From positions 12,256 through 76,255 of the forward strand of contig JAJRPE010000115.1 of the NCBI GenBank assembly GCA_024280935.1: a DNA stretch of 64,000 nucleotides, written 5' to 3'. The DNA comes from Candidatus Hydrogenedentota bacterium. Lineage in GTDB: Bacteria; Hydrogenedentota; Hydrogenedentia; Hydrogenedentales; JAEUWI01. This document shows positions 1 to 14,431 of this stretch, piece after piece (positions within the stretch are counted from its first letter, which is position 1; each line of letters opens with the position of its first letter). A model generated the notes under the pieces. It was not told where the DNA came from, searched no databases, and saw nothing but the letters and a program-made list of their open reading frames with translations. The position numbers and the translations under genes are program-made.

Positions 1-2151
1 TTTTCGGAGTCCGCCGATATAGATAGTCTGTCCACTGGCGAGATGGGGTGTTGTTTGAATTTCACGTTTTTCCTCTACGGGGACACCATTCACGACCTGG
101 GAAGAGGTGCTTTCCTTCGCAAGAATCTCTGCGATAATGTGATCATCGTGGGTCACCTTGGGGGTCACGGTGAGGGTTGTGCCAATCGGCTTGAACTTGG
201 TGGTCGTTTGGCTACCACCCGCTTGGCTGGTTATCAAATCGACATAGGGGACTTCCGACGCGATGGTAATGGTTGCAGGTTGATTCTCGACGGTAATAAG
301 CTTGGGATTGGAAAGGAGGGTGGAATTGTTGTTGCGAACTTCCGCCTGAATTACACCACGCCAATTGATGTCGCCAGAGAGTAAGCCAAAGCTCAACATA
401 CTGGCCACGTTGTTGCCAACGCTCAGGTTACCATCCAAGCCCAATTCCTGCAATGTGCCCGTAAAGATCCCTGTATTGCCCGCCGCATCACGCCGACTCT
501 GACTCTGTACCGCACTAATCAACCAATCTACCCCGGTGTCCGCCGCATCAGAAAGAGTAATATCCACGATCATGGCATCAATGGCCACCTGCTTGACGGG
601 AATATCCAATTGCTCAAGCAGATCCGTTATCTGCTCGACGATGATAGGTATATCCGTAACCACCAGAATACGGGCACGCTCATCCACCGTAACCTGGCCT
701 ATCTCCTTGGTGAGGATCCCTTGAATAATCTGCACCATATCCGCCGGATTCGCGTAGTTCAACTTGATCGGCATCGTCACCGTAGGAAGCACGCTCTGCT
801 CCACATCGAGGCGCCTGGCCATCGTAAGGAGGGGAAGTATATGGTCGGTCGGCCCCGATACGATGATAGTGTTTGCAGCCTTATTTGAAGAAATACTAAT
901 GTAGGATTCAAATTCCGAGCCGCCGATGACATCCTTCAATGTGCTGGCAATATCCTCCGCCTCGGCAAATTCAATATCAACCACTTCGGTGATTCTATCC
1001 GCAGCGATGGCATCGCGGTAATCCTTGATGTGATAGATGCCCTCTTCTTCCACCATCCCCAAACCGTTCAAACGAAGGGCGGTCTCAATGGCCTGTTCAA
1101 GAGGAACGTTTTTGAGGTTCAGCGACACCGTGCCGACGAGATCGGCACCGGCAACCACATTGATGCCCGCCATGCTGGCAAGAATCTGAACCGCATTCAC
1201 CAATTCCATGTCGCGAAAATCGATCGTGACAGGCTGACGAAGGGGATTGCCTTTCCACACCTTATGGGTCGCTGGTCCCGCCGAGCCTTCCAGTGAAGGT
1301 GCCGAAGCCTCGATCATTTGTTTGGTAAGTGCTTTATTCGCCTCCGTGCTTTTTGTCACCTTGAGTTCCCGCTTCGCGGGCGGCTCAGGTTCTTCTGCTG
1401 CTTCGGCCTCCTCCACAACAGGTGTCTCCGAATCAGCGGTGCCTTCGGCGCTCTCATCATCCTGTGCTGCCAATGCGATCGTTTCATACGTCGCTGTACG
1501 CACATCGGCATCCCGTACCGAGCGCAGCATTGCATTCATCGCATCCCGCGAAGAGTCTCCCCACCAAGCCGCACTCTCGGTCGTATCTGAGAGGTTGGAC
1601 AATGCCAAAAGTTCTGCTTTCAGATCACCCGAAGTGACATCGCTATCCTTCTGAAGTGGATAGGGCGTTTCCACAACGTTAATAGAAAAACTCTGGTCTC
1701 CCCGACGCAGGCGCAATTCCATCACACCGTCGCTCTCATGAGTCTCCACCGTTACACCTGGAGCCAGTGAGAGATTAATTCGGGCCTCAGCCTCGTGCCC
1801 CCAACTGGATTCGACAAGTTCCAGTGACTTGAGCAAAGGATGGTTCACGGCGATCTGCCCGGCAAGGTCTGCTGGAATGCGGCTGTTCATGAGAAGCACG
1901 CGGCAGCCCTGGTCGGCTTCGTTTTCCGCAACGAGAACACCCCGAAGTGCTTCCACGTGCAGCTCCAAATGATTCTCACCTACCCCTTGCGCATCGACAC
2001 GATGGAGCGTTGCGCATTGTGGCACATGAGTTGTCGTGGCAATCTCCGTATTAGCGGCCCCAAACGCGGTGCCGAAACGGAGCGTCGGTGTCATGATGAG
2101 AAGCATTGCCAGTACGACAATAACTCCAGCATTCCATCGCTTCCTGATCAT
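1..2151 (-). CDS. pilQ: Type IV pilus secretin PilQ; the gene runs past the window start, so its C-terminal part is missing here
   Basis: Reverse-strand translation from the ATG at 2151 (GGAG RBS 9 nt upstream) gives a signal-peptide-like N-terminus, a secretin N-domain (DFRDMELVNAVQILASMAGINVV) and the hallmark secretin motif LLSNPKLITVENQPATITIASEVPYV near window position 200-320. It lies immediately downstream of pilP. It is not in the ORF track because it runs off the window. Confidence 0.8.
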   Translation of the reverse strand, partial: MIRKRWNAGVIVVLAMLLIMTPTLRFGTAFGAANTEIATTTHVPQCATLHRVDAQGVGENHLELHVEALRGVLVAENEADQGCRVLLMNSRIPADLAGQIAVNHPLLKSLELVESSWGHEAEARINLSLAPGVTVETHESDGVMELRLRRGDQSFSINVVETPYPLQKDSDVTSGDLKAELLALSNLSDTTESAAWWGDSSRDAMNAMLRSVRDADVRTATYETIALAAQDDESAEGTADSETPVVEEAEAAEEPEPPAKRELKVTKSTEANKALTKQMIEASAPSLEGSAGPATHKVWKGNPLRQPVTIDFRDMELVNAVQILASMAGINVVAGADLVGTVSLNLKNVPLEQAIETALRLNGLGMVEEEGIYHIKDYRDAIAADRITEVVDIEFAEAEDIASTLKDVIGGSEFESYISISSNKAANTIIVSGPTDHILPLLTMARRLDVEQSVLPTVTMPIKLNYANPADMVQIIQGILTKEIGQVTVDERARILVVTDIPIIVEQITDLLEQLDIPVKQVAIDAMIVDITLSDAADTGVDWLISAVQSQSRRDAAGNTGIFTGTLQELGLDGNLSVGNNVASMLSFGLLSGDINWRGVIQAEVRNNNSTLLSNPKLITVENQPATITIASEVPYVDLITSQAGGSQTTTKFKPIGTTLTVTPKVTHDDHIIAEILAKESTSSQVVNGVPVEEKREIQTTPHLASGQTIYIGGLRK

Positions 2152-2154
2152 AAT

Positions 2155-2703
2155 TTATAGCTCCTTCAGCTCTACGGGAATTTCAGCATCGCCCCATTTG
2201 AACCAAACCCGTTTCGGTTCAATCTTGGTTAGGACGACACCGTCCGCATACTGATGTCCTTCTGATACAACTTCATCATCAACAATAGCAACCGGTGCAT
2301 ATTCACTGTATAGAATGCCCGTTACGTTCTTCTGAGCGACATCGTAGACCGTCGTTCCAATCGGCGCGCCGAGCAGACCCTCAGATGAAACTCGGATTCG
2401 GCCAACCAGCGGCGTCATGGGACTCCGACTGATTCTTTCCTCTTCATACCGAAAGGTGACCACCTCAATATTTCTAAGGAGCTTATCGAGATCCACATCC
2501 ACCTTCTTGAGGCGTGTCGGCCCCTTGGAGGGTGCGCTCGGAGCATGGGCCGTTGCGACCTTCTGGACTCCGCCTGAGCTACCACCGCCACCAGGCGGTG
2601 CGCCCGACCCCCCTGCGATGAAGATCTGATAGACGAGAACAAGGACCAGGACGGTGCCCAGAACCCCAGCGACTATGATTTCTTTTTTATTTTCCTGGTT
2701 CAT
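2155..2703 (-). CDS. pilP: PilP-like pilus assembly lipoprotein
   Basis: 182 aa with an N-terminal TM/lipoprotein-like segment, a Gly/Pro/Ser linker and a C-terminal beta domain. Its position between pilO and pilQ supports the call. It overlaps pilO by 17 bp. Confidence 0.5.
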   Translation of the reverse strand: MNQENKKEIIVAGVLGTVLVLVLVYQIFIAGGSGAPPGGGGSSGGVQKVATAHAPSAPSKGPTRLKKVDVDLDKLLRNIEVVTFRYEEERISRSPMTPLVGRIRVSSEGLLGAPIGTTVYDVAQKNVTGILYSEYAPVAIVDDEVVSEGHQYADGVVLTKIEPKRVWFKWGDAEIPVELKEL

Positions 2704-3277
2704 TGCTTGCTACGCTCGCAGTGGGTGCCTGAATGAATCGAAAAGTGCTGAGATGAAACTGCGCCTCGGAAATTCCGGCAATTTCCTCTCCAATATCCAA
2801 GTTTGAGACCTTTAAGTAGCGCTTGTCACGCTCCAAGAGATTGATAAACTGCACGATATCGTGAAAACCGCCCCGCGCTATAATCTCATAGGGGATAGTT
2901 TCCTTATTCGTGTCCGTCTTGGTGGGCAGCTGAATCAGTTCAACACCCAAGCCGAGGCTGTTGGCATCGGCCTCGAATTGCTCAAGCAGCTTGGGAATGT
3001 CCCGCTCTTCGGGCAAGCGCTCTTCGAAGAGTTCCACAAGACGCTGCGCCTTGACGGCCTCCTCCTTAAACTCTTTGAATTTTGCCTTGGTTTCCCGCGC
3101 CGCCTTCAACTCCTTAGTGGCCTCCTTGAGGTCGTTCTGAACAACGACAAGCCGCTCTTGCTGCTTTTTGGCGATCCCAAAATAGAAGCCTCCGCAAAGC
3201 AGCGCTGTAACCGCAAGAACCCCGGCCACGAACGCCCAGTCTTTGGGAGTGACCGTGCCTTTGAAGAAATCAAACAT
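2687..3277 (-). CDS. pilO: PilO-like type IV pilus inner-membrane assembly protein
   Basis: 196 aa with a single N-terminal TM helix followed by a long coiled coil, as in PilO. Gene order pilM-N-O-P-Q. Confidence 0.6.
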   Translation of the reverse strand: MFDFFKGTVTPKDWAFVAGVLAVTALLCGGFYFGIAKKQQERLVVVQNDLKEATKELKAARETKAKFKEFKEEAVKAQRLVELFEERLPEERDIPKLLEQFEADANSLGLGVELIQLPTKTDTNKETIPYEIIARGGFHDIVQFINLLERDKRYLKVSNLDIGEEIAGISEAQFHLSTFRFIQAPTASVASNEPGK

Positions 3278-3951
3278 CAGTTTCCGCCTCCCGCTTCAAT
3301 TTCGTACTCCAACACGAAACCGCGAACCGCGTAGCCGTTGTACTCCGCGTCAAGAATTTGCGGACGGTCCAAGGTAAATATGCTCGCAAACTCAGGATCC
3401 TCCGTTGTGTTGAAGGTAAGGGGGTTGATCTTGTTTGAACCCTCTTCGTTGTTGATGACGTAGCCCGATATCTCAAGCATGGGCCGCTTTACATTGACCG
3501 TCTTTACCTTCTCTTTCTTGGTCCGCTTGTCGATCTCGGGCTTGCCTGTTTTCTCATCAATGACCACATGTTCTTCTCGAACCGTCTTGTAAGTCACCCA
3601 TATACGCTTGTACCAGAAATTCTCGGGCGTAAGCGAGGCCAAACCGTGCAGCTGCTTTGACCAAATAATACGGTCACTCAGGATTTCCTGAATCACATTA
3701 ATCTTGTTTTCCAATTGCAGCTTTTTTTCGCTGAGCGCGTTGTACTCGTCGACGACATCCTTCAGCTCGTCCAAACCTTTTTTCGCCTGCACCAATTCTT
3801 GTGTCCTGTCGCTGATTTCCCCCAGCTTGCCGAAGAACATGAGGCCCATGCCCGCAACCGCGAACGCAAGAAGCATCAAACTCAAGAGATGGGGCAAAGG
3901 CGTCCGCTTAATGGGCCGCAGTTCCTCTGGGAGCAGATTTACAACAATCAT
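3277..3951 (-). CDS. pilN: PilN-like type IV pilus assembly protein
   Basis: Starts MIVVNLLPEELRP, the INLLP PilN signature. One TM helix and a coiled coil. It overlaps pilM by 4 bp (ATGA) and pilO by 1 bp. Confidence 0.7.
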   Translation of the reverse strand: MIVVNLLPEELRPIKRTPLPHLLSLMLLAFAVAGMGLMFFGKLGEISDRTQELVQAKKGLDELKDVVDEYNALSEKKLQLENKINVIQEILSDRIIWSKQLHGLASLTPENFWYKRIWVTYKTVREEHVVIDEKTGKPEIDKRTKKEKVKTVNVKRPMLEISGYVINNEEGSNKINPLTFNTTEDPEFASIFTLDRPQILDAEYNGYAVRGFVLEYEIEAGGGN

Positions 3952-5393
3952 AGGTCAGCCATCCCGCGTGCTGCGAGTCCGACGGCAACCATGAATTGCG
4001 CCGGCTGTTCGAGCATTCTGCCCATTGACATATCGTCGGCCACGAATAGCGCACTATTGGTTGGATCCGCCACGTCGACCGACTCAACCCCCAACTCATC
4101 AAGCAGGGTGGTACATACAAGGGAGGAATGGGCGATGCCTCCGCTTATCACCAGCCGATCCACAGGGCGCTCGTAAAGTTGGTGTTCATAATAATCGAAG
4201 GAACGACGAATTTCAGTAACCATCTTCGCAAGTGACACAAGGACCGTCTCCCTTATGTCCGGCTCAACTTCCTCCGCCATCCCCATTGGCGAAGCCGCTT
4301 GGAGACCGGAAAAGGAATCATCAAAGCCACCCCCGAGTTCATCGTCAAGAGGATCCAACAGGGAACTGCCTCCAGGCGCGCTGATAGGTGCTACCGGTGC
4401 CGCTTCTCCAAAAGGATCGTCACCAAAATCGGTAATAGAATCGGGTGTCTGTATACCTTCACCAGCATCGCTGAAGGTATCATCAAGATTCTCCACGATG
4501 GGAACCGCCGATGCCTCCACCTCTTCCATCTCTTCCATCAGGGCATTCGCACCGAGAGCCTCGGCACCAGCCTCCTCCTTGAACAAAAACTCTTGCAGAC
4601 GGCTTTCCGCCTCCTCGTACTCGCAACGAAGATCTTTCGCGATAGCGTGAATCAACTCACGGGAACCCCAGTTTACATCGCGAATGAAGTTTGATATACC
4701 ATCTTTCACAAAGTGTATGCTTGCCGAAGTCAAACCAATATTGACCAGGGCCACCGTTTCGCCGACACGCAAAAAGTCGCATGCCTCGGCAGCATCCGCC
4801 AAAGCAAGGGAGTCTATCCCGAGGATGGCATACTCAAGATCAGCCGCATCCATAATCTGAACGCGGGAATCGATAATCTCGTGTTTGGCCGCCACCAGCA
4901 GCACTTTCAACTGTCGCTGACCACCCTCTTCCACCTCATCAAGCAACGCCCAATCCAACGACACTTCAGCCAAGTCGTAGGGAATGTTCTGACCTGCCTC
5001 GCGACTCACAATTTCGCCGAGCTGATCACGGCTTGACTCGGCATAACGCGGGTAGCGAATTACTGCTGTCTGACCAGGCAAGGCCCCCACAATCTGGCTG
5101 GAATTCAGGTTCATATTGACCAACGCCTCGCTCACGGCAGCAGCGTGGGCGACAACCGGATCGGCGTTCACCTGATTTCGGTCCACCTCAGCATAGCCCA
5201 CCTCGTCAATACAGAGGCGACCACCCCGACGAGACATCTGAACCGCCTTGACAGCGTAGGTGCCGATATCGAGGCCTATCGATTTCTTTGCCTTAAAGAA
5301 CAGCAATAAACCCAAGCTCCTCTGTGAACCGCGCAAGACGATGCCAGGTCGGGCCACAATGCTCCAAGGCAAACGCTCTTCGCGAAACGCCAA
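3948..5393 (-). CDS. pilM: PilM-like actin-fold ATPase with a roughly 100-aa acidic low-complexity insertion. The annotated start is probably over-extended; the real start is likely nearer KKSIGLDIGTYAVKAV
   Basis: IGLDIGTYAVKAVQMS is the PilM/FtsA phosphate-1 motif. An acidic run (EEAGAEALGANALMEEMEEVEA...DPLDDELGGGFDDSF) is inserted in mid-protein. It is the first gene of the pil operon. Confidence 0.75.
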   Translation of the reverse strand: MAFREERLPWSIVARPGIVLRGSQRSLGLLLFFKAKKSIGLDIGTYAVKAVQMSRRGGRLCIDEVGYAEVDRNQVNADPVVAHAAAVSEALVNMNLNSSQIVGALPGQTAVIRYPRYAESSRDQLGEIVSREAGQNIPYDLAEVSLDWALLDEVEEGGQRQLKVLLVAAKHEIIDSRVQIMDAADLEYAILGIDSLALADAAEACDFLRVGETVALVNIGLTSASIHFVKDGISNFIRDVNWGSRELIHAIAKDLRCEYEEAESRLQEFLFKEEAGAEALGANALMEEMEEVEASAVPIVENLDDTFSDAGEGIQTPDSITDFGDDPFGEAAPVAPISAPGGSSLLDPLDDELGGGFDDSFSGLQAASPMGMAEEVEPDIRETVLVSLAKMVTEIRRSFDYYEHQLYERPVDRLVISGGIAHSSLVCTTLLDELGVESVDVADPTNSALFVADDMSMGRMLEQPAQFMVAVGLAARGMADL

Positions 5394-6180: not shown

Positions 6181-6933
6181 GTGAATATCTCATCTAATCC
6201 AGCACCGGACGCATCCGATCCACTGGAGTATTTCGTGCTGCCTCGGACCGTCCGGCGCCAAGTTTTGGCCTGTTCCGCTCTATCCGACAAAAAATCGGCT
6301 GGTGACGTATTTTACCTGTGGATACAACTGGATCCCGATGGTGAATCCCCTGCTATCGCGCCCGACAACTGGCTGAACGTGATCGACGAGGCTGCCGCCA
6401 TTGGCGCAAACTGGCTGGTCATCACACTGGGCGATCAGGAAAGGCCGCCTGAACACGTGGATGCCATGTGTCATTGGGCGCAGGACACGCATAAGATGAC
6501 GGTGTGTCTGCATAGTCTGGAATCAAAACTCCACCCAATGGTCGAATCGCTGGTTGTGTCCTTGGCCCAGGAGCTTACCTATCTGCTCGTGGAACCGAAA
6601 CATACGCACGCATTTGAGTCACTACGCGAACGCGGCGTGCGCGTCGGTCTGGCCAATCCAGCCCCCCACGACAGCGACACGGCGTGTGAATTCCCCTACA
6701 AGATGGTGTTCGTCGATGCTGGCGGCAACCTGTACACCTGTGGATTGGTTGCAGGCGAACAGGAGTTCTTTCTTGGTTCCGTATTCAACGGCAGCCTCGA
6801 ACAAATCACGCACAACCCCCAACTCCCCCATTCCGTTGCCGCATCAAAAGAGCGCACCGAGGACGGGTGCAGCGGATGTCCACCTTTGGTAGCAAAATAC
6901 CTCTGTAAGGAACAGCACGGGGTCACTGATTAA
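6181..6933 (+). CDS. Radical-SAM/SPASM-like protein lacking the CxxxCxxC cluster motif (a degenerate maturase-like protein)
   Basis: GTG start at 6181 with an in-frame TGA at 6172, so no upstream extension is possible. LNVIDEAAAIGANWLVITLGDQERP resembles the rSAM TIM-barrel segment before GGEPLL. The C-terminal CEFPYKMVFVDAGGNLYTCGLVAGEQEFFLGSVFNGSLEQI...CSGCPPLVAKYLC resembles a SPASM/twitch domain. Only one Cys is present where CxxxCxxC should be. Confidence 0.4.
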   Translation: MNISSNPAPDASDPLEYFVLPRTVRRQVLACSALSDKKSAGDVFYLWIQLDPDGESPAIAPDNWLNVIDEAAAIGANWLVITLGDQERPPEHVDAMCHWAQDTHKMTVCLHSLESKLHPMVESLVVSLAQELTYLLVEPKHTHAFESLRERGVRVGLANPAPHDSDTACEFPYKMVFVDAGGNLYTCGLVAGEQEFFLGSVFNGSLEQITHNPQLPHSVAASKERTEDGCSGCPPLVAKYLCKEQHGVTD

Positions 6934-7162
6934 GCCCAACCTCGCGAAGCACCTCGTCCAGGGATTCATCCGACAGGGCACCATCGGCCAGCTCGACGAC
7001 GGCCGCCCGATAGTCTTCCTCGGTAAAATAGAAGCCACATTCGGCCCCCAGCTTAACCACATGGGCCAGCCCCCCCTTCCCTTGAAAACCGTTGACCGCT
7101 TCCTGCAATGCCGGGCTTTCACCGATTCGGCTTATAAATGCTGTGGCGTTGGATTGCGACAT
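6923..7162 (-). CDS. Nif11-domain small protein (Nif11/NHLP leader-like, 79 aa)
   Basis: AFISRIGESPALQEAV...AHVVKLGAECGFYFTEEDY matches the Nif11 domain pattern. The tail ALSDESLDEV resembles the LSDEELExV motif of Nif11-class leaders, but there is no GG and only 8 residues follow. The start ATG overlaps the stop of the upstream regulator (TGATG). Confidence 0.55.
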   Translation of the reverse strand: MSQSNATAFISRIGESPALQEAVNGFQGKGGLAHVVKLGAECGFYFTEEDYRAAVVELADGALSDESLDEVLREVGLNQ

Positions 7163-8655
7163 CAGTCCTTCTCCGAAGCGTCTGCCAGGGATGCGCGTGC
7201 GCCGTTAACGACGCGCATCGCGGTATTCGCATCCAGTTTCAGCGCTGCCAACGAACTTTTCTGGTCTGCAAACAGGGCCTTCCTGGCGTCGTCTCCCGTG
7301 TAAGACAGGGCAAGCGAAAGGTTCAAGAGGCGCGCCAGGGCTTCGGCCTCCTCTGCCTCCTCAGGCTCAATATAGTGTCGAAGCGCTTTGGACAGGGGCT
7401 TTGGAAAGCGCCACCTCTCCGCAATAACACCTGCCGCAACCGCATGGTCCATACTGAAAAGTTTCTGCTCCGCAGCCAATAGTTCGGCACCGTAGAGATG
7501 GGATTTCACACGCTTATATTTGGTCGGGGATATACTCAACAGCGCAAGGCGCCCCAGCTCTCCAAGCATGCCGAGACTACAGGCTGCATGCTCACCCACG
7601 ACCCCGCCCTCGCGGGCCAAGCCTTGGGCAACTGTGGCCGTAAGACGACTCCGCTGAAACAACGCCCCAAGCGGCTCCAGGACCTTGGGAGAAACGGGCT
7701 CAACAAGCTCTCCGAGCACCCCCAACACGCCTGCCTTTCCAAGGAGCACAACCGCCATGGGGATGCTCTCGATTTGACCTGGCACACCATAGATATCACT
7801 GTTGGCCACGCGCATGAGAAAGGCACCTAAGCTCGGCTCTTCGAGAACCAGGCGCGCAACCCCACTCAACGAGGACTCCGAAGCCACGGCCTCCCTCAAC
7901 ACGTTCAGGCGCTCCTTGCCCAAAAATACCCCGTCCCACGCCGCGACCTTCTCATTCACCCGCTCTTTGGAATCTTTGGTGGTGTCCAGCATGTTGTCAA
8001 AGCTGGACAATGTCAACTCAAATTGGCTTCGATCAGGATAGTACCTCTGCACCGCAGCATGGATATCTTCCAATTTACAGAGCATCGCCTTGACGCGGAG
8101 ACCGGTCGTCCGCTCCAGCAACGTAATGGTGGCGGTGTCCAGCGGACAAGCCATGGCCACCGTGAGCAACTTACCCAGGCGATCAATCGGCAGGACCAGA
8201 CTCTCCACAGCCAACTTCTTGGGCACAAGCTCGATCAGATCCGGCGCGATTTCGAAACGAGCCAAATCGATGGTCGCGATACCCGGCTGGCGCGACAGCA
8301 CATCGTGGAGTTTGTCTTTATCCAGATGCCCCAGGGCGATGAGCAGTTCAAAGGTCTTCCCCCCTTGGGTCCTCTGCTTGTTGAGCGCGTCCTGAAGTTG
8401 GACCTCCGTTATTATCCCGGCATCAATCAGCAATTGGCCGATAGGGGCGTGGGCGGGCGGCGTGTCGCTCTGCTCGGAAAAACCGGGCTGTCCTTCGGGC
8501 GGCTCTGACGGTAGTGGAACGGCGTTTTCTTCGCTGCTTTTAATGTGGGCGGCACATCGAACACACTTGAAGGTTCTCCCGGTGGCATCCACCGGGATCT
8601 TCATCTTTTGACCGCACGTACACGTAAGAACGAGCATTGATGGACTCTCAGACAT
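7162..8655 (-). CDS. Regulatory protein: MJ0042-type zinc ribbon + GspE/MshE N-terminal (MshEN-like) domain + HDOD domain
   Basis: ATG at 8655 is preceded by AGGAGG 7 nt upstream. The longer track ORF starting at 8781 is probably over-extended. Zinc ribbon: LTCTCGQKMKIP...KCVRC. T2SE_Nter-like: LIDAGIITEVQLQDALNKQ...LIALGHL...LVPKKLAVESLVLPIDRLGKLLTVAMACPLD. HDOD-like: LGKAGVLGVLGEL...HAACSLGMLGELGRLALL. Confidence 0.6.
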   Translation of the reverse strand: MSESPSMLVLTCTCGQKMKIPVDATGRTFKCVRCAAHIKSSEENAVPLPSEPPEGQPGFSEQSDTPPAHAPIGQLLIDAGIITEVQLQDALNKQRTQGGKTFELLIALGHLDKDKLHDVLSRQPGIATIDLARFEIAPDLIELVPKKLAVESLVLPIDRLGKLLTVAMACPLDTATITLLERTTGLRVKAMLCKLEDIHAAVQRYYPDRSQFELTLSSFDNMLDTTKDSKERVNEKVAAWDGVFLGKERLNVLREAVASESSLSGVARLVLEEPSLGAFLMRVANSDIYGVPGQIESIPMAVVLLGKAGVLGVLGELVEPVSPKVLEPLGALFQRSRLTATVAQGLAREGGVVGEHAACSLGMLGELGRLALLSISPTKYKRVKSHLYGAELLAAEQKLFSMDHAVAAGVIAERWRFPKPLSKALRHYIEPEEAEEAEALARLLNLSLALSYTGDDARKALFADQKSSLAALKLDANTAMRVVNGARASLADASEKD

Positions 8656-8939
8656 CAAACACCTCCTGGACCCCGTCGTAAAACCTGGCGTGCGATCCTG
8701 GCGGACCGGTCCGCCCATATTCCAGATCGAGTATTGCCGAACTGCTGCCACAAGAGTGTGAATAGCACACATGGTTGACAACAGTTTCCGCTCAGTATGT
8801 TACACTAGATGGCACGCAAAGCGAAACCAAGCACCTGCGCATCTGCGTTCACACAAGGCACGACAAACAAAATCTTCCATGGCACGAAGCAGTCGGATCC
8901 ACAGACACCGGCTGTGCCCCTGCCACCTTGGAGTCCGGT

Positions 8940-11900
8940 ATGCAATTCACCATCCTCGAAGAGAAACTCACCGCGTCAAACGAGCATTTTCGGGAGCGCA
9001 AGCACGACAAATCGCTCGATTTGCTTTCCGATACTTGTTCCATATTCTCTGAGAGTCCCGTGCTCTGCTACTTCCAGGCGCGTAATTTCGCTGCTCTAAA
9101 TCGTGTGGACGATGCTCAGGGACTGTGTGAGAATGCCCTCCGTTCAGTCGAAGCTCTTCGGGAGCGCGCCGATGAATTGGGCGCGCTGCTCGACCCGATA
9201 CAGCGGAAGCGACTGCTGGGTGCCTCCACAGTACAGCAAGAGGCCCTCGATTCACTGAAGTCCACCTTGGACAACCGCCTGGCAGATGCCTTAAACAAGT
9301 CGGAACTCCAAAAAACGGTGGCGGCGCTCCAGGCAGAACTGGGTCAACTAAAGTCTGAAGCCGGCAGCGTGTCTGAATCGGAACTCGCCCTGCGGGAAGA
9401 GGTGGAGGCGCTCCGTTCTGCGGAAGAGCGGAAAACCGCCGCGCTTCTTCAATCTCAGGATGCTATGGAAAACCTCAAGCTCTTACTTGAGGAGCGGGAA
9501 TCGGCGGTGCGCCAGGTTGTCGAGGACTCCGAGGAAAAAGAGAATCGCATGGTGGCCCTTCAGGGCCAGTTGGAAGCACTGAATCAAGAGGCCCAGGCCG
9601 CGACTGCCTCCGAAGAGGAATTACTGGCGGAAGTCGAACGGCTGCGAAGCGAAGAAACCGCGAAGGCGCAGGCCCTGAAGGATGCGCGAGGCACCATGAC
9701 TTTGCTGCAAGACAAGCTGGCCGAACGTGAGGCCGCTGTAGCCCAGGCGGAGAAAAACACGGCGGACCGCGAAGCGGCAATCGGGCAATTGCAGCACGAC
9801 ATGAAGAGCATCCAGCAAAACGCGGCGGCAAGCTCCGAATCCGAAAAAGCGCTCCAAGCCGAACTGGGCCAACTGCGCGCAAACGAGAAAAACAAGTCGG
9901 ATGCCCTCGCTATTGCCCGGGAAGAGTTGCTTTCCCTCCAGGGCAATCTGAAGGATCGGGAATCGGCCGTGGCAGCCGCTGAATCTCGAACCAAAGAAAG
10001 CGAAGCGGCCATGGCGGCGCTCCAACAGGAAATGGAGACAATTCAATCCCAGGCCGCCGAAGCTTCTTCCTCCGAACAGGCGCTCCAAACTGAACTCGAA
10101 CAACTGCGTGTCAATGAGCGGAAGAAAACGGAAGCCTTGGAAACTGCACGGGGCGAACTCTCGCAACTACGAGACACCTTGGACGAGCGGGAGGGCGCCG
10201 TTGCCGAGGCCGAGGCCCGGAGCCGGGACAGCGAAGCCGCCATCGCAGCACTGAACCAGGAACTGTCCAACATCCAGGAGCAAGCCACGCAGGCATCCTC
10301 TTCGGAAGAAGCCCTGCAACAGGAACTAGCCCAACTACGAAACAACGAAAAGGAAAAATCCGAGGCACTCGCAACGGCACGAGGCGCGCTTTCCCAATTG
10401 CAAGAGACCCTGGACGACCGAGAGAGCGCCATTGCCGAGGCCGAAGCCCGCAGTAAGGAAAAAGAGGACGCAATCGCGGCGCTCCACGGCGAATTGAAGC
10501 AGATTCAGCAGCAGGCGGAGACGGCTTCCAGCTCCGAGCAGGCCCTCGCGCAGGAATTGGAACAACTGCGCAAAAATGAGCTGGAAAAATCCGATTCGCT
10601 GAAAAAGACACGGGGCGACCTCGAAAAACTTCAAGAAGAACTCGCAAAGCGCGAGGCCACCATTCAGGAGGCGACGGCCAAGAGCAGCATGAGCGATGAT
10701 GCGCTCAACACGCTCCGGGAAGAACTGGTGGGCCTCCATGGGCAAGTTCAGGAGCGGGCCGAATCGGAACGTGTCCTGACGGAGGAAGTATCCCAACTAC
10801 GTACGGACAGTTCCTCAAAGTCCGAGTCCCTGGATGGTGCCAGAGGCGAACTCGAAAACCTTCGCAAACAGCTGGACCAGCGCGAGAGCGCCGTCGATGA
10901 AGCACGTCAGAGCAGCGCGGAACAAGAAGCCCAAGTGGCCACGATGCAAGAGGAACTGGCAAAGCTGCGGGCCCAGGCTCAATCAGCATCGAATTCAGAG
11001 TCGAAAATCGCAAACGAATTGGAAGCCCTCCGCAACAGCGAAGCGCAGAAATCACAGACCCTGGATGATGCCCGCGCTGAACTGGAATCATTAAAAGGGC
11101 AATTGGGCGCTCGGGAAGATGCCGTGGAGCAGGCCCGAAAAACCAGCAGCGAACAGGAAATACTCCTGGCAACCATGCAGGAAGAGCTGACCGGCCTTCG
11201 GGAGCACGCGAACAAGGCATCCTCGTCCGAAGCCAGCTTGGCAGCGGAGCTCGATTCCTTGCGCTCCAGCGAATCTGACAAATCAAAGTCGCTGGATGAG
11301 GCCCGTGCAGAACTGGAAGCGCTGCGGGGGGATCTCACCGCACGCGAAGAGGCCACCAAGGATGCCAAGGCCGCGAATGCGGAGCAGGAAGCGCTCATGC
11401 TGGCCATGCAGAAGGAATTGGAAGGACTCCGCGACGAAGCGGCCAGCGTCACTTCCTCGGAAGAGGCCCTGGCCCGGGAAGTGGAAGAACTCCGCGCAAA
11501 TGAATCCAAAAAATCGCAAGCGGTGGAAACCGCAAAAGTCGAGATGGAGGCGCTTCGCAAGGCGCTCGCAGATAGGGAGCAGGAAATTCAGCGGGCGGCG
11601 GAGAGTGATGATGCCAGTGAAGCGCAGATGGAGCAGCTCAACGAAGAACTGAAAGCGCTTCAGGCCAAAGCGCAGGAAGCCGCCTCTTCCGAACAGGAGC
11701 TGGAAAACGAGCTTTCCCAGCTTCGGGACAACGAGCAGGAGAAGAATGCGGCGCTGCAAGAGTCCCGTGCCGCGCTCGAAGAACTGCAACAAACGCTCGC
11801 CAGCCACGAAGAAGCCACGCAGCAAACTATCGAGGAAAAGGAAAGGAACGAAAAGGCCGTCAAACTGCTTCAGGAAGAGCTATCCCAACTCGAAGGGCAG

Positions 11901-13223
11901 AAAGCGGCGGCCAACGCCTCCCAAGCTTCACTGTCGAGTGAATTGGAGCTCCTGAAGCAAGAGGAAAAACAACAGCTTTCCAACCTCGAAAAAGCGCGGA
12001 CCGATGTGGAAGCCCTGCGTCAAACCGTGGACAAGCAAGACGATGTTCTTGCCCGCACCGAATTCATGCTCAACCGGGCGCGCAAGGGTGGCCCCTCAGG
12101 AAGCCTCCTCCCCGCATTCGTCGTATTCGGAGTCTTTCTGCTGGGCCTGGTCGGTGTAATGGCCTATAAAGCCCTGACCCCGGAACCGGACCCGGTCGAA
12201 ACTGCGCCCCAAGTCGTCTCTCTGGAGTTTCCAGCGGATCGATCTATCGGGACCCTGCTTGTTACGCCTCTGAAAAAACTTGCTCGCGACGATTGGCAAC
12301 CTTTTGCGGAAAAAGCACAGGGCACCTTTGAGGTATCGACAGACCAGGCCCTTCGCTTAGAACTTAACGAGGAGGCTGCCAGCGATCTATCTGCGCTCAG
12401 CGACTTGGACCCGCAATTCATTCGCTCGCTGGTCTTGCCCGCGCTGCCCCAGGACATCGCCAGTCTTGAACGCCTCAGCCACCTGACAGCGTTGGCCACG
12501 CTGACAACCAAGTTTCCCATCACCGAGAAAGAACGGGCCGCATTGGCCGAGCGCCTGCCTGCCTCCTGCGCCATCGTGGATCCTGGCAAGGCCGCCCCAA
12601 CCATATCCCTCGCCGAGCTGAACACGCCACCGACCGCACGCACGTTGGAATTCCCGGCCAACACATCACTTGGGAAGCTATTCGTGCGCCCGTGGCAGAC
12701 AGAAGATGAGGGGCCGTGGCAGGAACGCGGTGCCGCACAGGGTTCCATTTCTGTGGCCGAGGGGGTGGAGGCAAAACTCGAAGTCGCCTACGATTTAGGG
12801 GGTACCCTGAGCGCTCTATCTACCTTGGACAAGAATGACCTCCAGGCGATTGGACTCGTGGGGGAAAAGGTAAACAACGACAGCATGGAGCACGTGGGAC
12901 TGCTGACAGGCCTCCGGCACGTCACCCTGACGAGAACAGGCGTGACCGACGAAGGACTCCGCCACCTCTGGGAATTGTCCTTTCTCCATGATCTAAACAT
13001 TCACACGCCGAAAGAAATGACGGACACAGGTTTGGCGTATCTGACCGCTCACCGCTATCTCTCCCGCCTGTCGCTCACCAATACCAACTTAACTTTCGAG
13101 AGCGTCAATACACTGGGAACCTTTTCCTATCTTCGGGAACTTCATCTAAGCGATTCGGGCATCTCCGAGGAAGGCATCATTTCGCTCGAAGGCGACCTGC
13201 CCAACTGTAAGATAAGCTACTGA
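8940..13223 (+). CDS. Giant coiled-coil repeat protein: about 12 tandem 77-aa (11-heptad) repeats, one TM helix, and a C-terminal leucine-rich-repeat domain
   Basis: ATG at 8940 has a GGAG RBS. The track start at 8775 adds a non-coiled 55-aa extension that I discount. The repeat unit is SSSEQALQxELxQLRxNExxKSxALxxARGxLSQLxxTLDxRExAxAEAEARSxxxExAIAALxxELxxIQxQAxxA, 77 aa and 231 bp at the DNA level, spanning roughly 9330-12060. TM helix LLPAFVVFGVFLLGLVGVMAY. The LRR-like C-terminus is LxxLxxLxL repeats from about 12300 to 13220. Confidence 0.7.
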   Translation: MQFTILEEKLTASNEHFRERKHDKSLDLLSDTCSIFSESPVLCYFQARNFAALNRVDDAQGLCENALRSVEALRERADELGALLDPIQRKRLLGASTVQQEALDSLKSTLDNRLADALNKSELQKTVAALQAELGQLKSEAGSVSESELALREEVEALRSAEERKTAALLQSQDAMENLKLLLEERESAVRQVVEDSEEKENRMVALQGQLEALNQEAQAATASEEELLAEVERLRSEETAKAQALKDARGTMTLLQDKLAEREAAVAQAEKNTADREAAIGQLQHDMKSIQQNAAASSESEKALQAELGQLRANEKNKSDALAIAREELLSLQGNLKDRESAVAAAESRTKESEAAMAALQQEMETIQSQAAEASSSEQALQTELEQLRVNERKKTEALETARGELSQLRDTLDEREGAVAEAEARSRDSEAAIAALNQELSNIQEQATQASSSEEALQQELAQLRNNEKEKSEALATARGALSQLQETLDDRESAIAEAEARSKEKEDAIAALHGELKQIQQQAETASSSEQALAQELEQLRKNELEKSDSLKKTRGDLEKLQEELAKREATIQEATAKSSMSDDALNTLREELVGLHGQVQERAESERVLTEEVSQLRTDSSSKSESLDGARGELENLRKQLDQRESAVDEARQSSAEQEAQVATMQEELAKLRAQAQSASNSESKIANELEALRNSEAQKSQTLDDARAELESLKGQLGAREDAVEQARKTSSEQEILLATMQEELTGLREHANKASSSEASLAAELDSLRSSESDKSKSLDEARAELEALRGDLTAREEATKDAKAANAEQEALMLAMQKELEGLRDEAASVTSSEEALAREVEELRANESKKSQAVETAKVEMEALRKALADREQEIQRAAESDDASEAQMEQLNEELKALQAKAQEAASSEQELENELSQLRDNEQEKNAALQESRAALEELQQTLASHEEATQQTIEEKERNEKAVKLLQEELSQLEGQKAAANASQASLSSELELLKQEEKQQLSNLEKARTDVEALRQTVDKQDDVLARTEFMLNRARKGGPSGSLLPAFVVFGVFLLGLVGVMAYKALTPEPDPVETAPQVVSLEFPADRSIGTLLVTPLKKLARDDWQPFAEKAQGTFEVSTDQALRLELNEEAASDLSALSDLDPQFIRSLVLPALPQDIASLERLSHLTALATLTTKFPITEKERAALAERLPASCAIVDPGKAAPTISLAELNTPPTARTLEFPANTSLGKLFVRPWQTEDEGPWQERGAAQGSISVAEGVEAKLEVAYDLGGTLSALSTLDKNDLQAIGLVGEKVNNDSMEHVGLLTGLRHVTLTRTGVTDEGLRHLWELSFLHDLNIHTPKEMTDTGLAYLTAHRYLSRLSLTNTNLTFESVNTLGTFSYLRELHLSDSGISEEGIISLEGDLPNCKISY
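9330..12060 (+). repeat. Intragenic 231-bp tandem DNA repeat array, about 12 units, encoding the 77-aa coiled-coil repeat
   Basis: Direct reading shows near-periodic recurrence of gc(c/g)tcc(t/a)cttc(g/c)gaaga...gaactgg...caactgcg every 231 bp. The antisense ORFs in this span are artefacts. Confidence 0.8.
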
Positions 13224-13321: not shown

Positions 13322-14152
13322 TTATGAACCCCCGCCAATCTGCTTGACGATAGCCTCGTAAACGGCGCGTGGTGTTCGCACGCGCCCCAACAGGGCTTTC
13401 CCCTTGATGGTGCCGTGGCAATCGCTGCCGCCACTCACGAGCAATCCGCGATCTCCAGCGAGGACGAGGAACTCGTCCACGCGCCCGGGCGTATGGCTGA
13501 TGTGGTAGGCCTCAATGCCATCGAAAGGCAGCAGCAACAATTCGGGGAGAAGCTTGCGCACCGTCTTACCCAACCCCGGATGGGCCACAAAGGCCAGTCC
13601 CCCCGCCCCATGAATGCAATCAACCGCTTCCGCAACAGGCAAGGTTTTCTTAGGCACAAAAGCGGCCTTGCCGCCATTGAGGTAGCGGTCAAAGGCCTCT
13701 TGGGGCTTCTTTACGTACCCGGCGTCGGTCATGGCCCGTGCAATGTGCATGCGGCCAAAGGCCTCGCCGCCGTCGGCCACCAGGGACTCAGGCAGATGGA
13801 TATCCAATTCCGCGAGCCGCTCCAGGATATCTCGTCCCCGTCGCTGCCTGGCATGACAAAGCGCACCCAACGCTGCGCAGAGCGCCTCGTTCTCAATGTC
13901 AATACCGAGGCCAAGCACATGAACCTCGCGCCCCTTGAACCCCGTGCTGATCTCCGTACCCGAAAGAAAGCCAAGACCCGCGTTGCGGGCAGCGACACGC
14001 CCCGCCGCCACGCCAGCGACCGTGTCATGGTCGGTCAGCGCAATGGCCGAGGCCCCCGCAGCCACCGCACGGGCCACCACCACCGCCGGCGAATCGGAGC
14101 CATCGGAGTGGCGGGTGTGCAGGTGCAAGTCAACGAAAGTATCAGTGTTCAC
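13322..14152 (-). CDS. PHP-domain phosphoesterase (TrpH/YciV-like)
   Basis: VDLHLHTRHSDGS...ALTDHDTVAGV is the PHP His-motif. A likely GTG start at 14152 gives VNTDTFVDLHLHT. The track ORF extends to 14380 with a non-homologous N-terminus. Confidence 0.7.
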   Translation of the reverse strand: MNTDTFVDLHLHTRHSDGSDSPAVVVARAVAAGASAIALTDHDTVAGVAAGRVAARNAGLGFLSGTEISTGFKGREVHVLGLGIDIENEALCAALGALCHARQRRGRDILERLAELDIHLPESLVADGGEAFGRMHIARAMTDAGYVKKPQEAFDRYLNGGKAAFVPKKTLPVAEAVDCIHGAGGLAFVAHPGLGKTVRKLLPELLLLPFDGIEAYHISHTPGRVDEFLVLAGDRGLLVSGGSDCHGTIKGKALLGRVRTPRAVYEAIVKQIGGGS

Positions 14153-14431
14153 AAAAAGCAACCCGCCTCCAGGGACTGACGCGGACCAATCATCTGGGGT
14201 ATGAGGAAAAAGCGTGGCTTCACAGGCTGTATCTCTTGAAACAAGGGCCACTTCAAGGTCCGTGGCTGTCCCGTCGTTGGCGAGAAGAGCGACGATTCTT
14301 TCGCAAACGACGGGACAGCTACGCCCGATAAGAGTGTCTGCCGTTGCACCAAGAGGACTCGCAAGATTCCAAGCAAACAAAAATAGACCACGCCGTTTTG
14401 GGCGCGTCAGTCCCTGAACTCCCTCCCAAAA

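Follow-up and report, generated by a model that had tools for sequence, protein, structure and literature searches.

A predicted bitopic protein of Candidatus Hydrogenedentota with a register-locked 77-residue coiled-coil array and an LRR ectodomain: a candidate tether encoded beside an MshEN gene

Tropomyosin, the axonemal proteins CCDC39/CCDC40 and the periplasmic spacer Lpp are long two-stranded coiled coils whose overall length, or whose supra-heptad period, matters for function. The polar landmark proteins FimV, HubP and TspA are envelope proteins that span the membrane once. Their cytoplasmic region is large, very acidic and contains repeats, and they have ties to type IV pili and to second-messenger signalling. 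PodJ, the polar organelle development scaffold of Caulobacter crescentus, combines coiled coils and, optionally, an IDR on the cytoplasmic side with a TM anchor and a repeat domain in the periplasm (PMC8980812).

The protein described here is encoded in a window of 64,000 nt (the whole stretch of DNA that was analysed) and has the same predicted topology as PodJ (PMC8980812); in some genomes the gene neighbourhood is pilus-related. However, PodJ has six separate coiled-coil segments instead of a register-locked 77-residue array, and its periplasmic part consists of TPRs and a peptidoglycan-binding domain, whereas ours has cap modules and leucine-rich repeats (LRRs); no TPR or peptidoglycan-binding family was found in this ectodomain. 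The FimV/HubP/TspA group resembles our protein in its single membrane span and in the size, strong acidity and repeats of its cytoplasmic part, but FimV and HubP are oriented in the opposite way (N-terminal periplasmic LysM, C-terminal cytoplasmic part) and their repeats are short acidic units rather than heptad coiled coils. Searches with the Pfam and NCBIfam family models gave no PodJ-like match and no match to the FimV or LysM models. Our protein is best read as analogous, not homologous, to the PodJ/FimV-type scaffolds. It invites comparison with tropomyosin, CCDC39/CCDC40 and Lpp through its own strict 77-residue period, its length changes by whole units and its conservation confined to the helix interface; there is no homology to these proteins, and ours differs in being membrane-anchored and in carrying an ectodomain.

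The gene occupies positions 8940–13223 of the plus strand, stop codon included (all features of this gene given below are on the same strand), and lies in a single uninterrupted open frame called at 8775–13223. We took the ATG at 8940 as the start, because a GGAG precedes it (8930–8933) and the orthologs in loci L007 and L009 start at the matching residue. The coding sequence is real and intact, it has full-length homologs, and the product has the 1427 aa that the initial annotation had given. The first 144 aa (8940–9371) are non-repetitive and have exactly this length in most family members. In the AF2 model this part (pLDDT 89.6) would form a TPR-like four-helix head at aa 2–82 (helices 2–18, 22–33, 40–52 and 56–82), followed by a long helix from aa 86. 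The top matches of the head in a PDB fold search were all TPR domains, though weak (E of at least 1.6e-3). The final ∼25 aa of the N-terminal part already resemble the end of a repeat unit.

Self-identity of the protein peaked at lag 77 and its multiples (0.43 at lag 77) and that of the DNA at lag 231 (0.51), in agreement with the proposed period of 77 aa or 231 bp, equal to 11 heptads. We observed 11 full units at 9372–11912 (aa 145–991; unit k starts at 9372+231k), which scored 71–92 bits each against a unit HMM in steps of exactly 77 aa. A terminal partial unit, the twelfth, covers 11913–12074 (HMM envelope, aa 992–1045). The 11 full and two flanking partial units align without any indel and in perfect register. 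The terminal partial unit was closest, by a margin of 13 points, to unit 8 of the relatives with eight units, and is assigned by sequence as the ortholog of their terminal partial unit.

Strong hydrophobic residues were confined to two of the seven heptad phases, three and four residues apart, and the heptad phase was continuous through the array. The array thus has the hydrophobic a/d positions and the helix-compatible sequence of a heptad coiled coil, and proline occurs only twice among 6314 unit residues. In the AF2 monomer model a single continuous helix, residues 86–297, crosses two unit junctions with pLDDT above 90. An SSSE motif had been taken for a linker between units; the motif is present (S3 in 100% and E4 in 94% of 82 units), but the modelled helix passes unbroken through it.

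Opposite charges outnumbered like charges in the g-to-e′(+5) pairs by 24:5 in the window protein and by 17–18:2 in three relatives, and no opposite-charge bias was seen in other phases. Parallel in-register pairing would give such a pattern, and the rod may be a parallel in-register dimer. Conservation by heptad position was 2.4–2.6 bits at a/d, 1.4–1.6 bits at e/g and 0.6 bits at b/c/f, and orthologs were 95% identical at d as against 31% at f. The conserved residues thus lie on the helix–helix interface (a/d/e/g) and not on the exposed face, which fits a spacer or ruler. The strong conservation at e/g would also fit a bundle of at least three strands. Conserved polar or charged residues take 6 of the 22 core positions of each unit (E4, E18, K21, R42, S53 and S/R/H56) and alanine another four of the 22; given these core positions, the coiled coil may be weak, flexible, higher-order or partner-dependent.

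A single transmembrane helix was found after the array, as had been proposed (aa ∼1054–1076; 12099–12167), preceded by RARKGG. The 351-aa ectodomain behind it (12168–13220) carries cap module 1 (aa ∼1092–1142; 12213–12365), cap module 2 (aa ∼1234–1283; 12639–12788), about five RNI/FBXL-type LRRs (aa ∼1287–1414; 12798–13181) and a C-terminal LPNCKI motif. They fit the RNI/FBXL/GALA type of LRR, defined by ∼24–29-residue LxxLxLxxN/CxL units in tandem that build a curved beta/alpha solenoid, and the LRR fold was confirmed. LRRs were thus correctly recognized earlier, but the ∼300 aa attributed to them were too many: they are detectable by sequence only over ∼aa 1287–1414, and the rest of the ectodomain consists of the two beta-rich caps and a few irregular beta/alpha turns. 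Planctomycetota and related bacteria secrete proteins with RNI/FBXL/GALA-type LRRs (among them P0002–P0006 and P0016) that have the same cap module, hFPxDRSxGxL...W...G.V.V, likewise followed by ∼25-residue LRRs and a C-terminal LPxC motif. However, these are proteins of 330–650 aa with a signal peptide, one cap and many LRRs, whereas the window ectodomain has a duplicated module (two caps) and few LRRs and follows a cytoplasmic rod of 1050 aa and the TM helix.

The architecture is common to about 25 relatives, which form a small, hitherto undescribed family. The syntenic relatives are all Candidatus Hydrogenedentota MAGs, and not Planctomycetota as first assumed. Across ∼25 proteins the unit is almost always of 77 aa, and the exceptions of 74, 81 and 70 aa (−3, +4, −7) are, by length, compatible with a stutter or a heptad. 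The family falls into copy-number classes of 8, 12, 14 or 16 units, and the earlier suggestion of a variable length holds in this sense, as a change by whole units across the family. Between species, rod units were 66–83% conserved, the head 59–62% and the ectodomain 56–60%.

The divergent neighbour (7162–8655, minus strand) encodes a zinc ribbon (CxC..CxxC), an MshEN domain and an HDOD domain, just as the initial annotation had read it. Pfam matched MshEN at 3.5e-16 (59 bits; cutoff 23) and HDOD at 7.4e-27, the NCBIfam model NF053729 of the c-di-GMP motif scored 47.9 bits (cutoff 38), and the c-di-GMP-binding motif PIGQLLIDAGIITEVQLQDALNKQ is readable in the MshEN domain. The product is therefore a predicted MshEN-type c-di-GMP receptor. 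Of 15 loci, 13 have this gene divergently adjacent to the rod gene, and in four of them (L003, L010, L013, L014) the pil and PHP/rib flanks have both been lost; the MshEN gene is missing from L015, where an ankyrin-repeat gene is the neighbour, and from the distant P0041. Since all the loci come from one phylum, the synteny partly reflects shared ancestry. On the far side, the minus strand carries pilQ (cut by the window end), a PilP-sized ORF, pilO, a PilN-sized ORF and pilM (1–5393); the pilM end is 3.5 kb from the rod gene, at the distance first reported. Neither the pil nor the rib neighbours are constant across the family loci: pil genes adjoin the family gene only in the window and in L001, L004, L007 and L009. 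Compared with the 13 of 15 for the MshEN gene, these five loci leave the suggested pilus association weak.

From these observations we tentatively propose that the protein serves as a tether or spacer of defined length that spans the inner membrane, contains a parallel coiled coil and acts together with the MshEN receptor. It would be a bitopic inner-membrane protein with a cytoplasmic N-terminus, in which aa ∼86–1045 (∼960 residues) form one uninterrupted alpha-helix. With a second copy, this helix would make a parallel in-register coiled coil, a very acidic rod of ∼140 nm (taking 0.1485 nm per residue) built of twelve 77-residue modules of 11 heptads, each ∼11.4 nm long; rigidity and such a length in vivo are what we infer from the sequence. 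The TPR-like head would sit at the membrane-distal tip, and the TM helix would tie the rod to the periplasmic domain of two caps and the LRR. The LRR, a protein-binding module, would anchor the protein to an envelope component. The rod could thereby hold the head and its binding partner a defined distance into the cell, a distance that evolution may have tuned by gain or loss of whole modules (8, 12, 14, 16). The genomic linkage suggests that the protein most likely acts with the zinc-ribbon/MshEN receptor, c-di-GMP setting what is tethered and when.

A different role, unlikely in our view but deserving attention, is that of a multivalent polar or positional hub like PodJ or FimV/HubP, where the acidic rod gathers many clients at a single site of the envelope, for example components of the type IV pilus and proteins of c-di-GMP signalling, and valency counts rather than length. 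The PodJ-like layout (PMC8980812), the very acidic array, the adjoining pilMNOPQ and MshEN genes and the long P/Q-rich, disordered linkers of P0040, P0042, P0044, L016 and L010 all speak for a hub. Yet a docking site repeated in each unit should be conserved, and the exposed b/c/f face is the least conserved part; moreover, the pil linkage is inconstant and the family models give no relation to PodJ, FimV or HubP.

It is rather improbable that the protein is a membrane-anchored cytoskeletal element, in which rods join side by side to form filaments or a lattice at the cell cortex, in the manner of crescentin, FilP or Scy, and influence cell shape or envelope mechanics, the 77-residue period setting the assembly stagger. 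The sequence is compatible with intermediate filament (IF)-like proteins, as it forms a long heptad rod whose discontinuities are of the stutter type only; a lateral or staggered mode of packing could be encoded in its conserved e/g positions and in the charged core layers that recur along it, and the weak database matches are all long structural coiled coils. Nevertheless, each chain carries a net charge of −88, which makes lateral self-packing unfavourable unless counter-ions or partners are present, and the g–e′ pattern is already accounted for by simple in-register pairing. To our knowledge, the known IF-like bacterial proteins have neither a TM anchor nor an ectodomain.

The placement of the rod and the LRRs on opposite sides of the membrane, as in the tether model, agrees with the original proposal, and the direction is supported by three observations. 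In 24 family members, K/R outnumber D/E by 113 to 36 in the 15-residue stretch that leads into the TM helix, and the counts are 48 K/R and 52 D/E in the 15-residue stretch that follows it, a strong positive-inside bias that is consistent across the proteins. No signal sequence or hydrophobic segment precedes aa 1050 in the window protein. The nearest stand-alone relatives of the ectodomain carry N-terminal signal peptides and are thus exported. These signals support a cytoplasmic rod, one TM helix and a periplasmic LRR module as the predicted arrangement. The reverse, a periplasmic or surface coiled coil (fibrous adhesin or strut) with a cytoplasmic LRR domain, could appeal to the mostly intracellular RNI/FBXL-type LRR domains of eukaryotes and to the coiled-coil struts that do occur in the periplasm, e.g. 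Lpp and TolA domain II; against the three observations above it is hardly credible.

The DNA units had been described as near-identical and the locus as prone to expansion and contraction, and we found neither. Units of the window gene share 42–66% identity in DNA and 29–68% in protein, their longest common exact run is 13 nt, and TRF reported no tandem array in the gene. Identity at codon positions 1, 2 and 3 was 54, 63 and 34%, position 3 being saturated between units; by this measure substitutions follow purifying selection, and the units are anciently diverged. Three species only 68% identical, represented by independent MAGs, each keep 12 units and 1427 aa, with 1:1 orthology of units. 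Because of this ancient divergence and constant copy number the window gene is not expansion-prone, and it lacks the near-identical units able to mispair that mark contingency repeats. Copy number can change elsewhere in the family: the near-conspecific L011 and L016 (98.9% DNA identity over 2 kb) are set apart by a block of 455 aa. The copies of this block share 89% DNA identity, and recombination could act on so young a duplicate. That block aside, an assembly artefact or a hypervariable array arising by slippage or recombination is very improbable and is largely refuted at this locus, where such divergent units would confuse neither assemblers nor recombination, the ORF is intact under a purifying pattern, and the same product recurs in the three species.

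The best-scoring curated models were SMC, Rad50, JetC and LmuB, which matched through their long coiled-coil arms. An SMC/Rad50 identity was rejected: the score of 94 bits fell far short of the 567-bit cutoff and covered coiled-coil stretches only, no ABC ATPase head or hinge was found, and a TPR-like head and LRRs occupy the termini in place of ABC head halves. SMC arms also run antiparallel within one molecule, whereas the ion pairs seen here point towards parallel pairing. Pfam matches to ATG16 and CCDC39 were sub-threshold and reflected coiled-coil composition. In PADLOC the rod protein gave only partial JetC/LmuB/DruC coiled-coil matches, and none of three neighbours matched a defence model; beyond coiled-coil composition there was no match to a defence protein.

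Upstream of the gene, a conserved intergenic block, TTGACAACAGTTTCC..TATGTTACACTAGA (8775–8809, plus strand), faces the coding sequence and recurs in identical pattern in L007 and L009, 38 nt 5′ of their ATG. In a sigma-70 scan the block did not satisfy the spacing rule; it is possibly a promoter or an operator. Beyond the MshEN gene, a gene of 250 aa (6181–6933, plus strand) encodes a weakly SPASM-like, Cys-rich C-terminus (Pfam SPASM, 5.8e-5). It lies in the same place in L001, L003, L004, L005, L007, L009, L011 and L016, and so often accompanies the rod/MshEN pair.

The open frame extends from 8775 to 13223 on the forward strand. We took the ATG at 8940 as the start, because a GGAG precedes it at 8930–8933 and because the two closest orthologs, L007 and L009, begin at the equivalent methionine and have a conserved non-coding block upstream. 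The product is 1427 aa long, and a scan for a terminator 3' of the gene found none. Self-comparison of the protein gave sharp peaks at a lag of 77 aa (43% identity) and its multiples, and the DNA peaked at 231, 462 and 693 nt. When the protein was cut every 77 residues from residue 145, eleven full units aligned without gaps, with a partial unit on either flank of the array, one made of roughly the final 25 residues of the N-terminal part and the other of aa 992–1045. The 77-aa period proposed in the initial annotation is thus genuine, far beyond chance. The same annotation had described the 231-bp units as near-identical and expansion-prone, which is wrong for this gene: Tandem Repeats Finder detected no tandem repeat in its DNA with either the default or the minimum score, the units are 42–66% identical in DNA and 29–68% in protein, and the longest exact run common to any two of them is 13 nt. 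With no tandem repeat detected, the idea of slippage was dropped. Identity between units at codon positions 1, 2 and 3 was 54%, 63% and 34%, respectively, and we infer that the units are ancient and have been maintained by purifying selection.

Strong hydrophobic residues are confined to two of the seven phases, with spacings of 3 and 4 residues, and this pattern is unbroken through all units. AlphaFold2, run on residues 1–298 with a six-sequence alignment (mean pLDDT 89.6), modelled four short helices (2–82), followed by a single helix (86–297) that crosses two "SSSE" junctions with pLDDT >90. Since the modelled helix runs through these junctions, SSSE, previously read as a linker between units, is predicted to be a conserved in-helix motif and not a linker. 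A helical hairpin or three-helix bundle with loops at SSSE, NExxKS and SxExE was likewise ruled out, as the helix is continuous and there is almost no proline or conserved glycine. For the four-helix head, the best PDB fold matches were TPR domains only, and these were weak (E >= 1.6e-3). In a pool of 82 units from 10 proteins (6314 residues), S3 and L14 are invariant, L25, L39, E10, E4, K21, L35, A49 and R15 are 93–99% conserved, and only 2 residues are proline. Conserved polar or charged residues occupy 6 of the 22 core positions per unit (E4, E18 and S53 at a; K21, R42 and S/R/H56 at d), and the net charge of the window's array is −88.

Opposite-charge pairs outnumber like-charge pairs between g and e'(+5) by 24:5 in the window's protein and by 17–18:2 in three relatives, and no other phase shows such a bias. 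This pattern is the classic sequence signature of parallel, in-register pairing, which is therefore the arrangement we predict. We also sought by hand an antiparallel or staggered register in which the core charges (E4 and E18 with K21 and R42) would be matched, and no offset fitted all layers. Information content was 2.4–2.6 bits at a/d, 1.4–1.6 at e/g and ∼0.6 at b/c/f, and among the three 12-unit orthologs identity reached 95% at d and only 31% at f. By both measures, the constraint on these sequences falls on the helix–helix interface and not on the outward surface. With the established coiled-coil rise of 0.1485 nm per residue, the predicted helix from aa 86 to 1045 would span ∼143 nm.

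The array is followed by RARKGG and then by one hydrophobic helix at aa ∼1054–1076. Over 24 family members, the 15 residues preceding this helix contain 113 K/R and 36 D/E, and the 15 following it contain 48 K/R and 52 D/E. This charge bias, together with the lack of an N-terminal signal sequence in the window's protein, points to a topology with the N-terminus in and the C-terminus out. In sequence, the ectodomain is related to bacterial proteins that combine a signal peptide and a single "hFPxDRSxGxL" cap with many LRRs; as these stand-alone relatives carry signal peptides, the ectodomain is predicted to lie outside the cytoplasm. An AlphaFold2 model of the ectodomain from eight family sequences was confident (pLDDT 86.1, pTM 0.70) and contained a pair of beta-rich cap modules, with strand/helix turns after each. 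Pfam, at its thresholds, called no LRR in this region. The LRRs that had been reported over ∼300 aa are present, but canonical LRR accounts for only ∼130 aa of the 351-aa ectodomain. The ectodomain is shorter (211–253 aa) in four relatives, L013, L015, P0048 and L010, and has one recognisable cap module or none; hence duplication of the cap is not universal.

Queries with the full protein, a family profile run over 1.84 billion representatives, and searches of genome and metagenome contigs together recovered ∼25 proteins of the same architecture; at 50% clustering only about six clusters are full-length. An exhaustive search with the full-length profile returned 82,588 hits, a count that is uninformative on family size because, past approximately the first 6 full-length proteins and fragments, the hits are generic LRR or coiled-coil proteins. 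No model in Pfam, NCBIfam or PADLOC covers the family; membership in ATG16, SMC, Rad50, JetC or LmuB was rejected, the whole protein giving only sub-threshold coiled-coil matches to them. JGI labels the homolog P0036 a "nucleic acid-binding Zn-ribbon protein", but its sequence has no zinc ribbon and the label is unsupported. In the literature on Hydrogenedentes coiled coils, 77-residue repeats, MshEN with HDOD, and coiled coil with LRR, c-di-GMP and pili, we found no description of the family.

All named family records come from Candidatus Hydrogenedentota MAGs, and a few TPA bins labelled Nitrospirales carry the same locus. Three of the latter (L005, L008 and L010) are TPA MAGs titled "uncultured Nitrospirales/Nitrospiraceae" with a Hydrogenedentota-type locus, L005 also sharing the rib/nusB/PHP synteny, and their labels look like misclassifications. 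The window and L009 have ten syntenic genes with 56–85% protein identity. From the named relatives and this synteny we conclude that the host is a Hydrogenedentota bacterium (a phylum of the FCB group) and not a planctomycete; the assignment to Planctomycetota in the initial annotation does not hold.

The N-terminal part is exactly 144 aa in most members, with 77-aa steps thereafter; in a few, the array starts 1–6 residues earlier (residue 143 in L011, 144 in L015, and 139 in L014 and L016). The sole unit lengths that deviate in the family are 74 aa (unit 6 of P0043 and six units of the divergent P0048), 81 aa (P0048) and 70 aa (L011 and L013), that is, −3, +4 and −7 residues, which are stutter-type or whole-heptad changes tolerated by a coiled coil. 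Counting the terminal partial unit, at least 14 proteins have 8 units (1111–1117 aa, longer where a P/Q-rich linker precedes the TM helix), the window's protein, L007, L009 and L015 have 12, L010 has ∼11, L014 and L011 have 14, and L013 has 16.

The window's protein and its L007 and L009 orthologs are only 68% identical, and each is exactly 1427 aa long. Their units are orthologous one to one and, at 66–83% identity, are better conserved than the head (59–62%) or the ectodomain (56–60%). In the 12-unit class, units 3, 4 and 5 each trace back to unit 3 of the 8-unit arrays, with margins of 10–15 points. Orthologous unit pairs are 69–80% identical and paralogous pairs at most 67%; as every ortholog pair is closer than any paralog pair, the expansion to 12 units is, on these comparisons, older than the split of the three species. 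One recent change distinguishes two near-conspecific MAG contigs, L011 and L016, whose genes (L011:10001-13783 and L016:5001-8924) match at 98.9% DNA identity in their first 2031 nt. L011 has an extra block of 455 aa (65 heptads), in frame and in heptad phase. It consists of a 70-aa hybrid unit, in which 17 aa of unit 8 meet the final 53 aa of unit 2 at a GGAGGAG microhomology, and of a second copy of units 3–7 at 89% DNA identity, the differences being mostly synonymous. Since the junction has no homology of k-mer length, we think that the block, seen in a single MAG contig, is genuine rather than a misassembly. The copies are more diverged than the L011 and L016 genomes are from each other, so either the block was lost in L016 or it was acquired from a diverged allele.

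The divergent upstream gene (7162-8655, reverse strand) does encode, as had been described, a CxC...CxxC zinc ribbon, MshEN and HDOD; its MshEN domain passes the NCBI curated c-di-GMP-motif cutoff and is thus predicted to bind the nucleotide. An MshEN gene in the same position and orientation was found in 13 of the 15 loci with upstream sequence, and it is kept in L003, L010, L013 and L014 though other flanking genes differ. The exceptions are the distant member P0041 and L015, where an ankyrin-repeat gene takes its place (L015 3929-4618, reverse strand, 229 aa), with a MacB-type ABC exporter beyond. In the P0036/P0037 clade (L001 8837-9808; L004 and L008) the partner is ∼320–340 aa and has MshEN without HDOD; therefore the constant part of the partnership is the zinc-ribbon/MshEN portion. 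The pilMNOPQ operon, noted earlier as a neighbour, is confirmed here but is adjacent in only five loci, and the downstream PHP–nusB–rib genes are housekeeping neighbours that are likewise not constant.

What the analysis shows is a bitopic protein with a very long, acidic, continuous predicted cytoplasmic helix, an exact 11-heptad super-period and interface-restricted conservation. The far end of the helix bears a small TPR-like head, the periplasmic part is a binding module of LRR type, and the neighbouring c-di-GMP-receptor gene is conserved. We describe the family as an envelope-spanning coiled-coil scaffold whose novelty is the strictly modular construction of its rod. Long bacterial coiled-coil proteins are mostly irregular. 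Here, the period is fixed at exactly 11 heptads in more than 90 units of ∼25 proteins and copy number shifts by whole modules, as would be expected of a rod whose length and register are themselves selected. The most economical interpretation, which we favour at somewhat below even confidence, is a parallel coiled-coil tether or spacer with length as the selected variable: the periplasmic LRR would anchor the rod to the envelope, and the rod would hold or position cargo in the cytoplasm under c-di-GMP control.

The main rival, a multivalent hub of the PodJ/FimV type, has a real though minority claim. By architecture, the closest known protein to this family is PodJ, which combines coiled coils in the cytoplasm with an IDR, a TM anchor and a repeat domain in the periplasm (PMC8980812). 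Five relatives (P0040, P0042, P0044, L016 and L010) carry an inserted P/Q/A-rich low-complexity linker of 150–250 aa, probably disordered, that separates the array from the TM helix or, in L010, comes just after the helix; these members have the PodJ-like layout of coiled coil, IDR and TM, and the window's protein has no linker. Architecture and linkers favour a hub, whereas the lack of conservation on the exposed face of the units speaks against one. Searches of the window's protein for the domains that define PodJ, FimV/HubP and SMC were negative, so it belongs to none of these groups. A stricter version of the spacer reading, a tunable ruler, we regard as improbable: rods of 8, 12, 14 or 16 modules of 11.4 nm (∼100–190 nm) would determine how far a cytoplasmic structure, held at the TPR-like head, lies from the envelope site that the LRR recognises, and the divergently encoded MshEN receptor would turn attachment on and off with c-di-GMP. 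By logic, the closest known systems are tropomyosin and CCDC39/40, which act as coiled-coil rulers. A membrane-anchored filament former is possible, at low probability. An artefact or contingency locus, with the units so diverged, and a reversed topology, against the flanking charges, are essentially excluded for this locus.

Under the spacer reading, the 8/12/14/16-module series is a natural test of bacterial coiled coils as intracellular spacers, and the conserved gene pair ties a modular rod to c-di-GMP signalling. If true, the ruler would be a bacterial membrane-anchored counterpart of the coiled-coil rulers and tethers of eukaryotes, and would give the first cell-biological access to the uncultured Hydrogenedentota, to our knowledge a phylum without described cell biology. 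The practical limit is that the hosts are uncultured and function is read from sequence only; as the family is confined to this phylum, even a modest functional result would be new.

Other features of the region are recorded here. A 733-aa ORF at 59506-61707 (forward strand) had no Pfam match at E <= 0.001. The convergent downstream gene (13322-14380, reverse strand) encodes a PHP-family phosphoesterase whose top NCBIfam models, 3',5'-nucleoside bisphosphate phosphatase and RNase RNM, both score well below their cutoffs; in most relatives the gene has nusB and the riboflavin operon as neighbours. In the three closest species, the intergenic region contains a conserved block of 35 nt, TTGACAACAGTTTYC..TATGKTACACTAGA, which faces the coiled-coil gene (8775-8809, forward strand, in the window; 9929-9963 in L007 and L009), 131 nt upstream of the ATG in the window and 38 nt in L007/L009. 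As the block at 8775-8809 does not satisfy the sigma-70 spacing rule in a promoter scan, it is a candidate non-canonical promoter or operator. A gene at 6181-6933 (forward strand) encodes a 250-aa protein that lacks a radical-SAM core and has only a weakly SPASM-like, Cys-rich C-terminus; the gene is conserved beside the MshEN gene in eight related loci and may belong to the same module.
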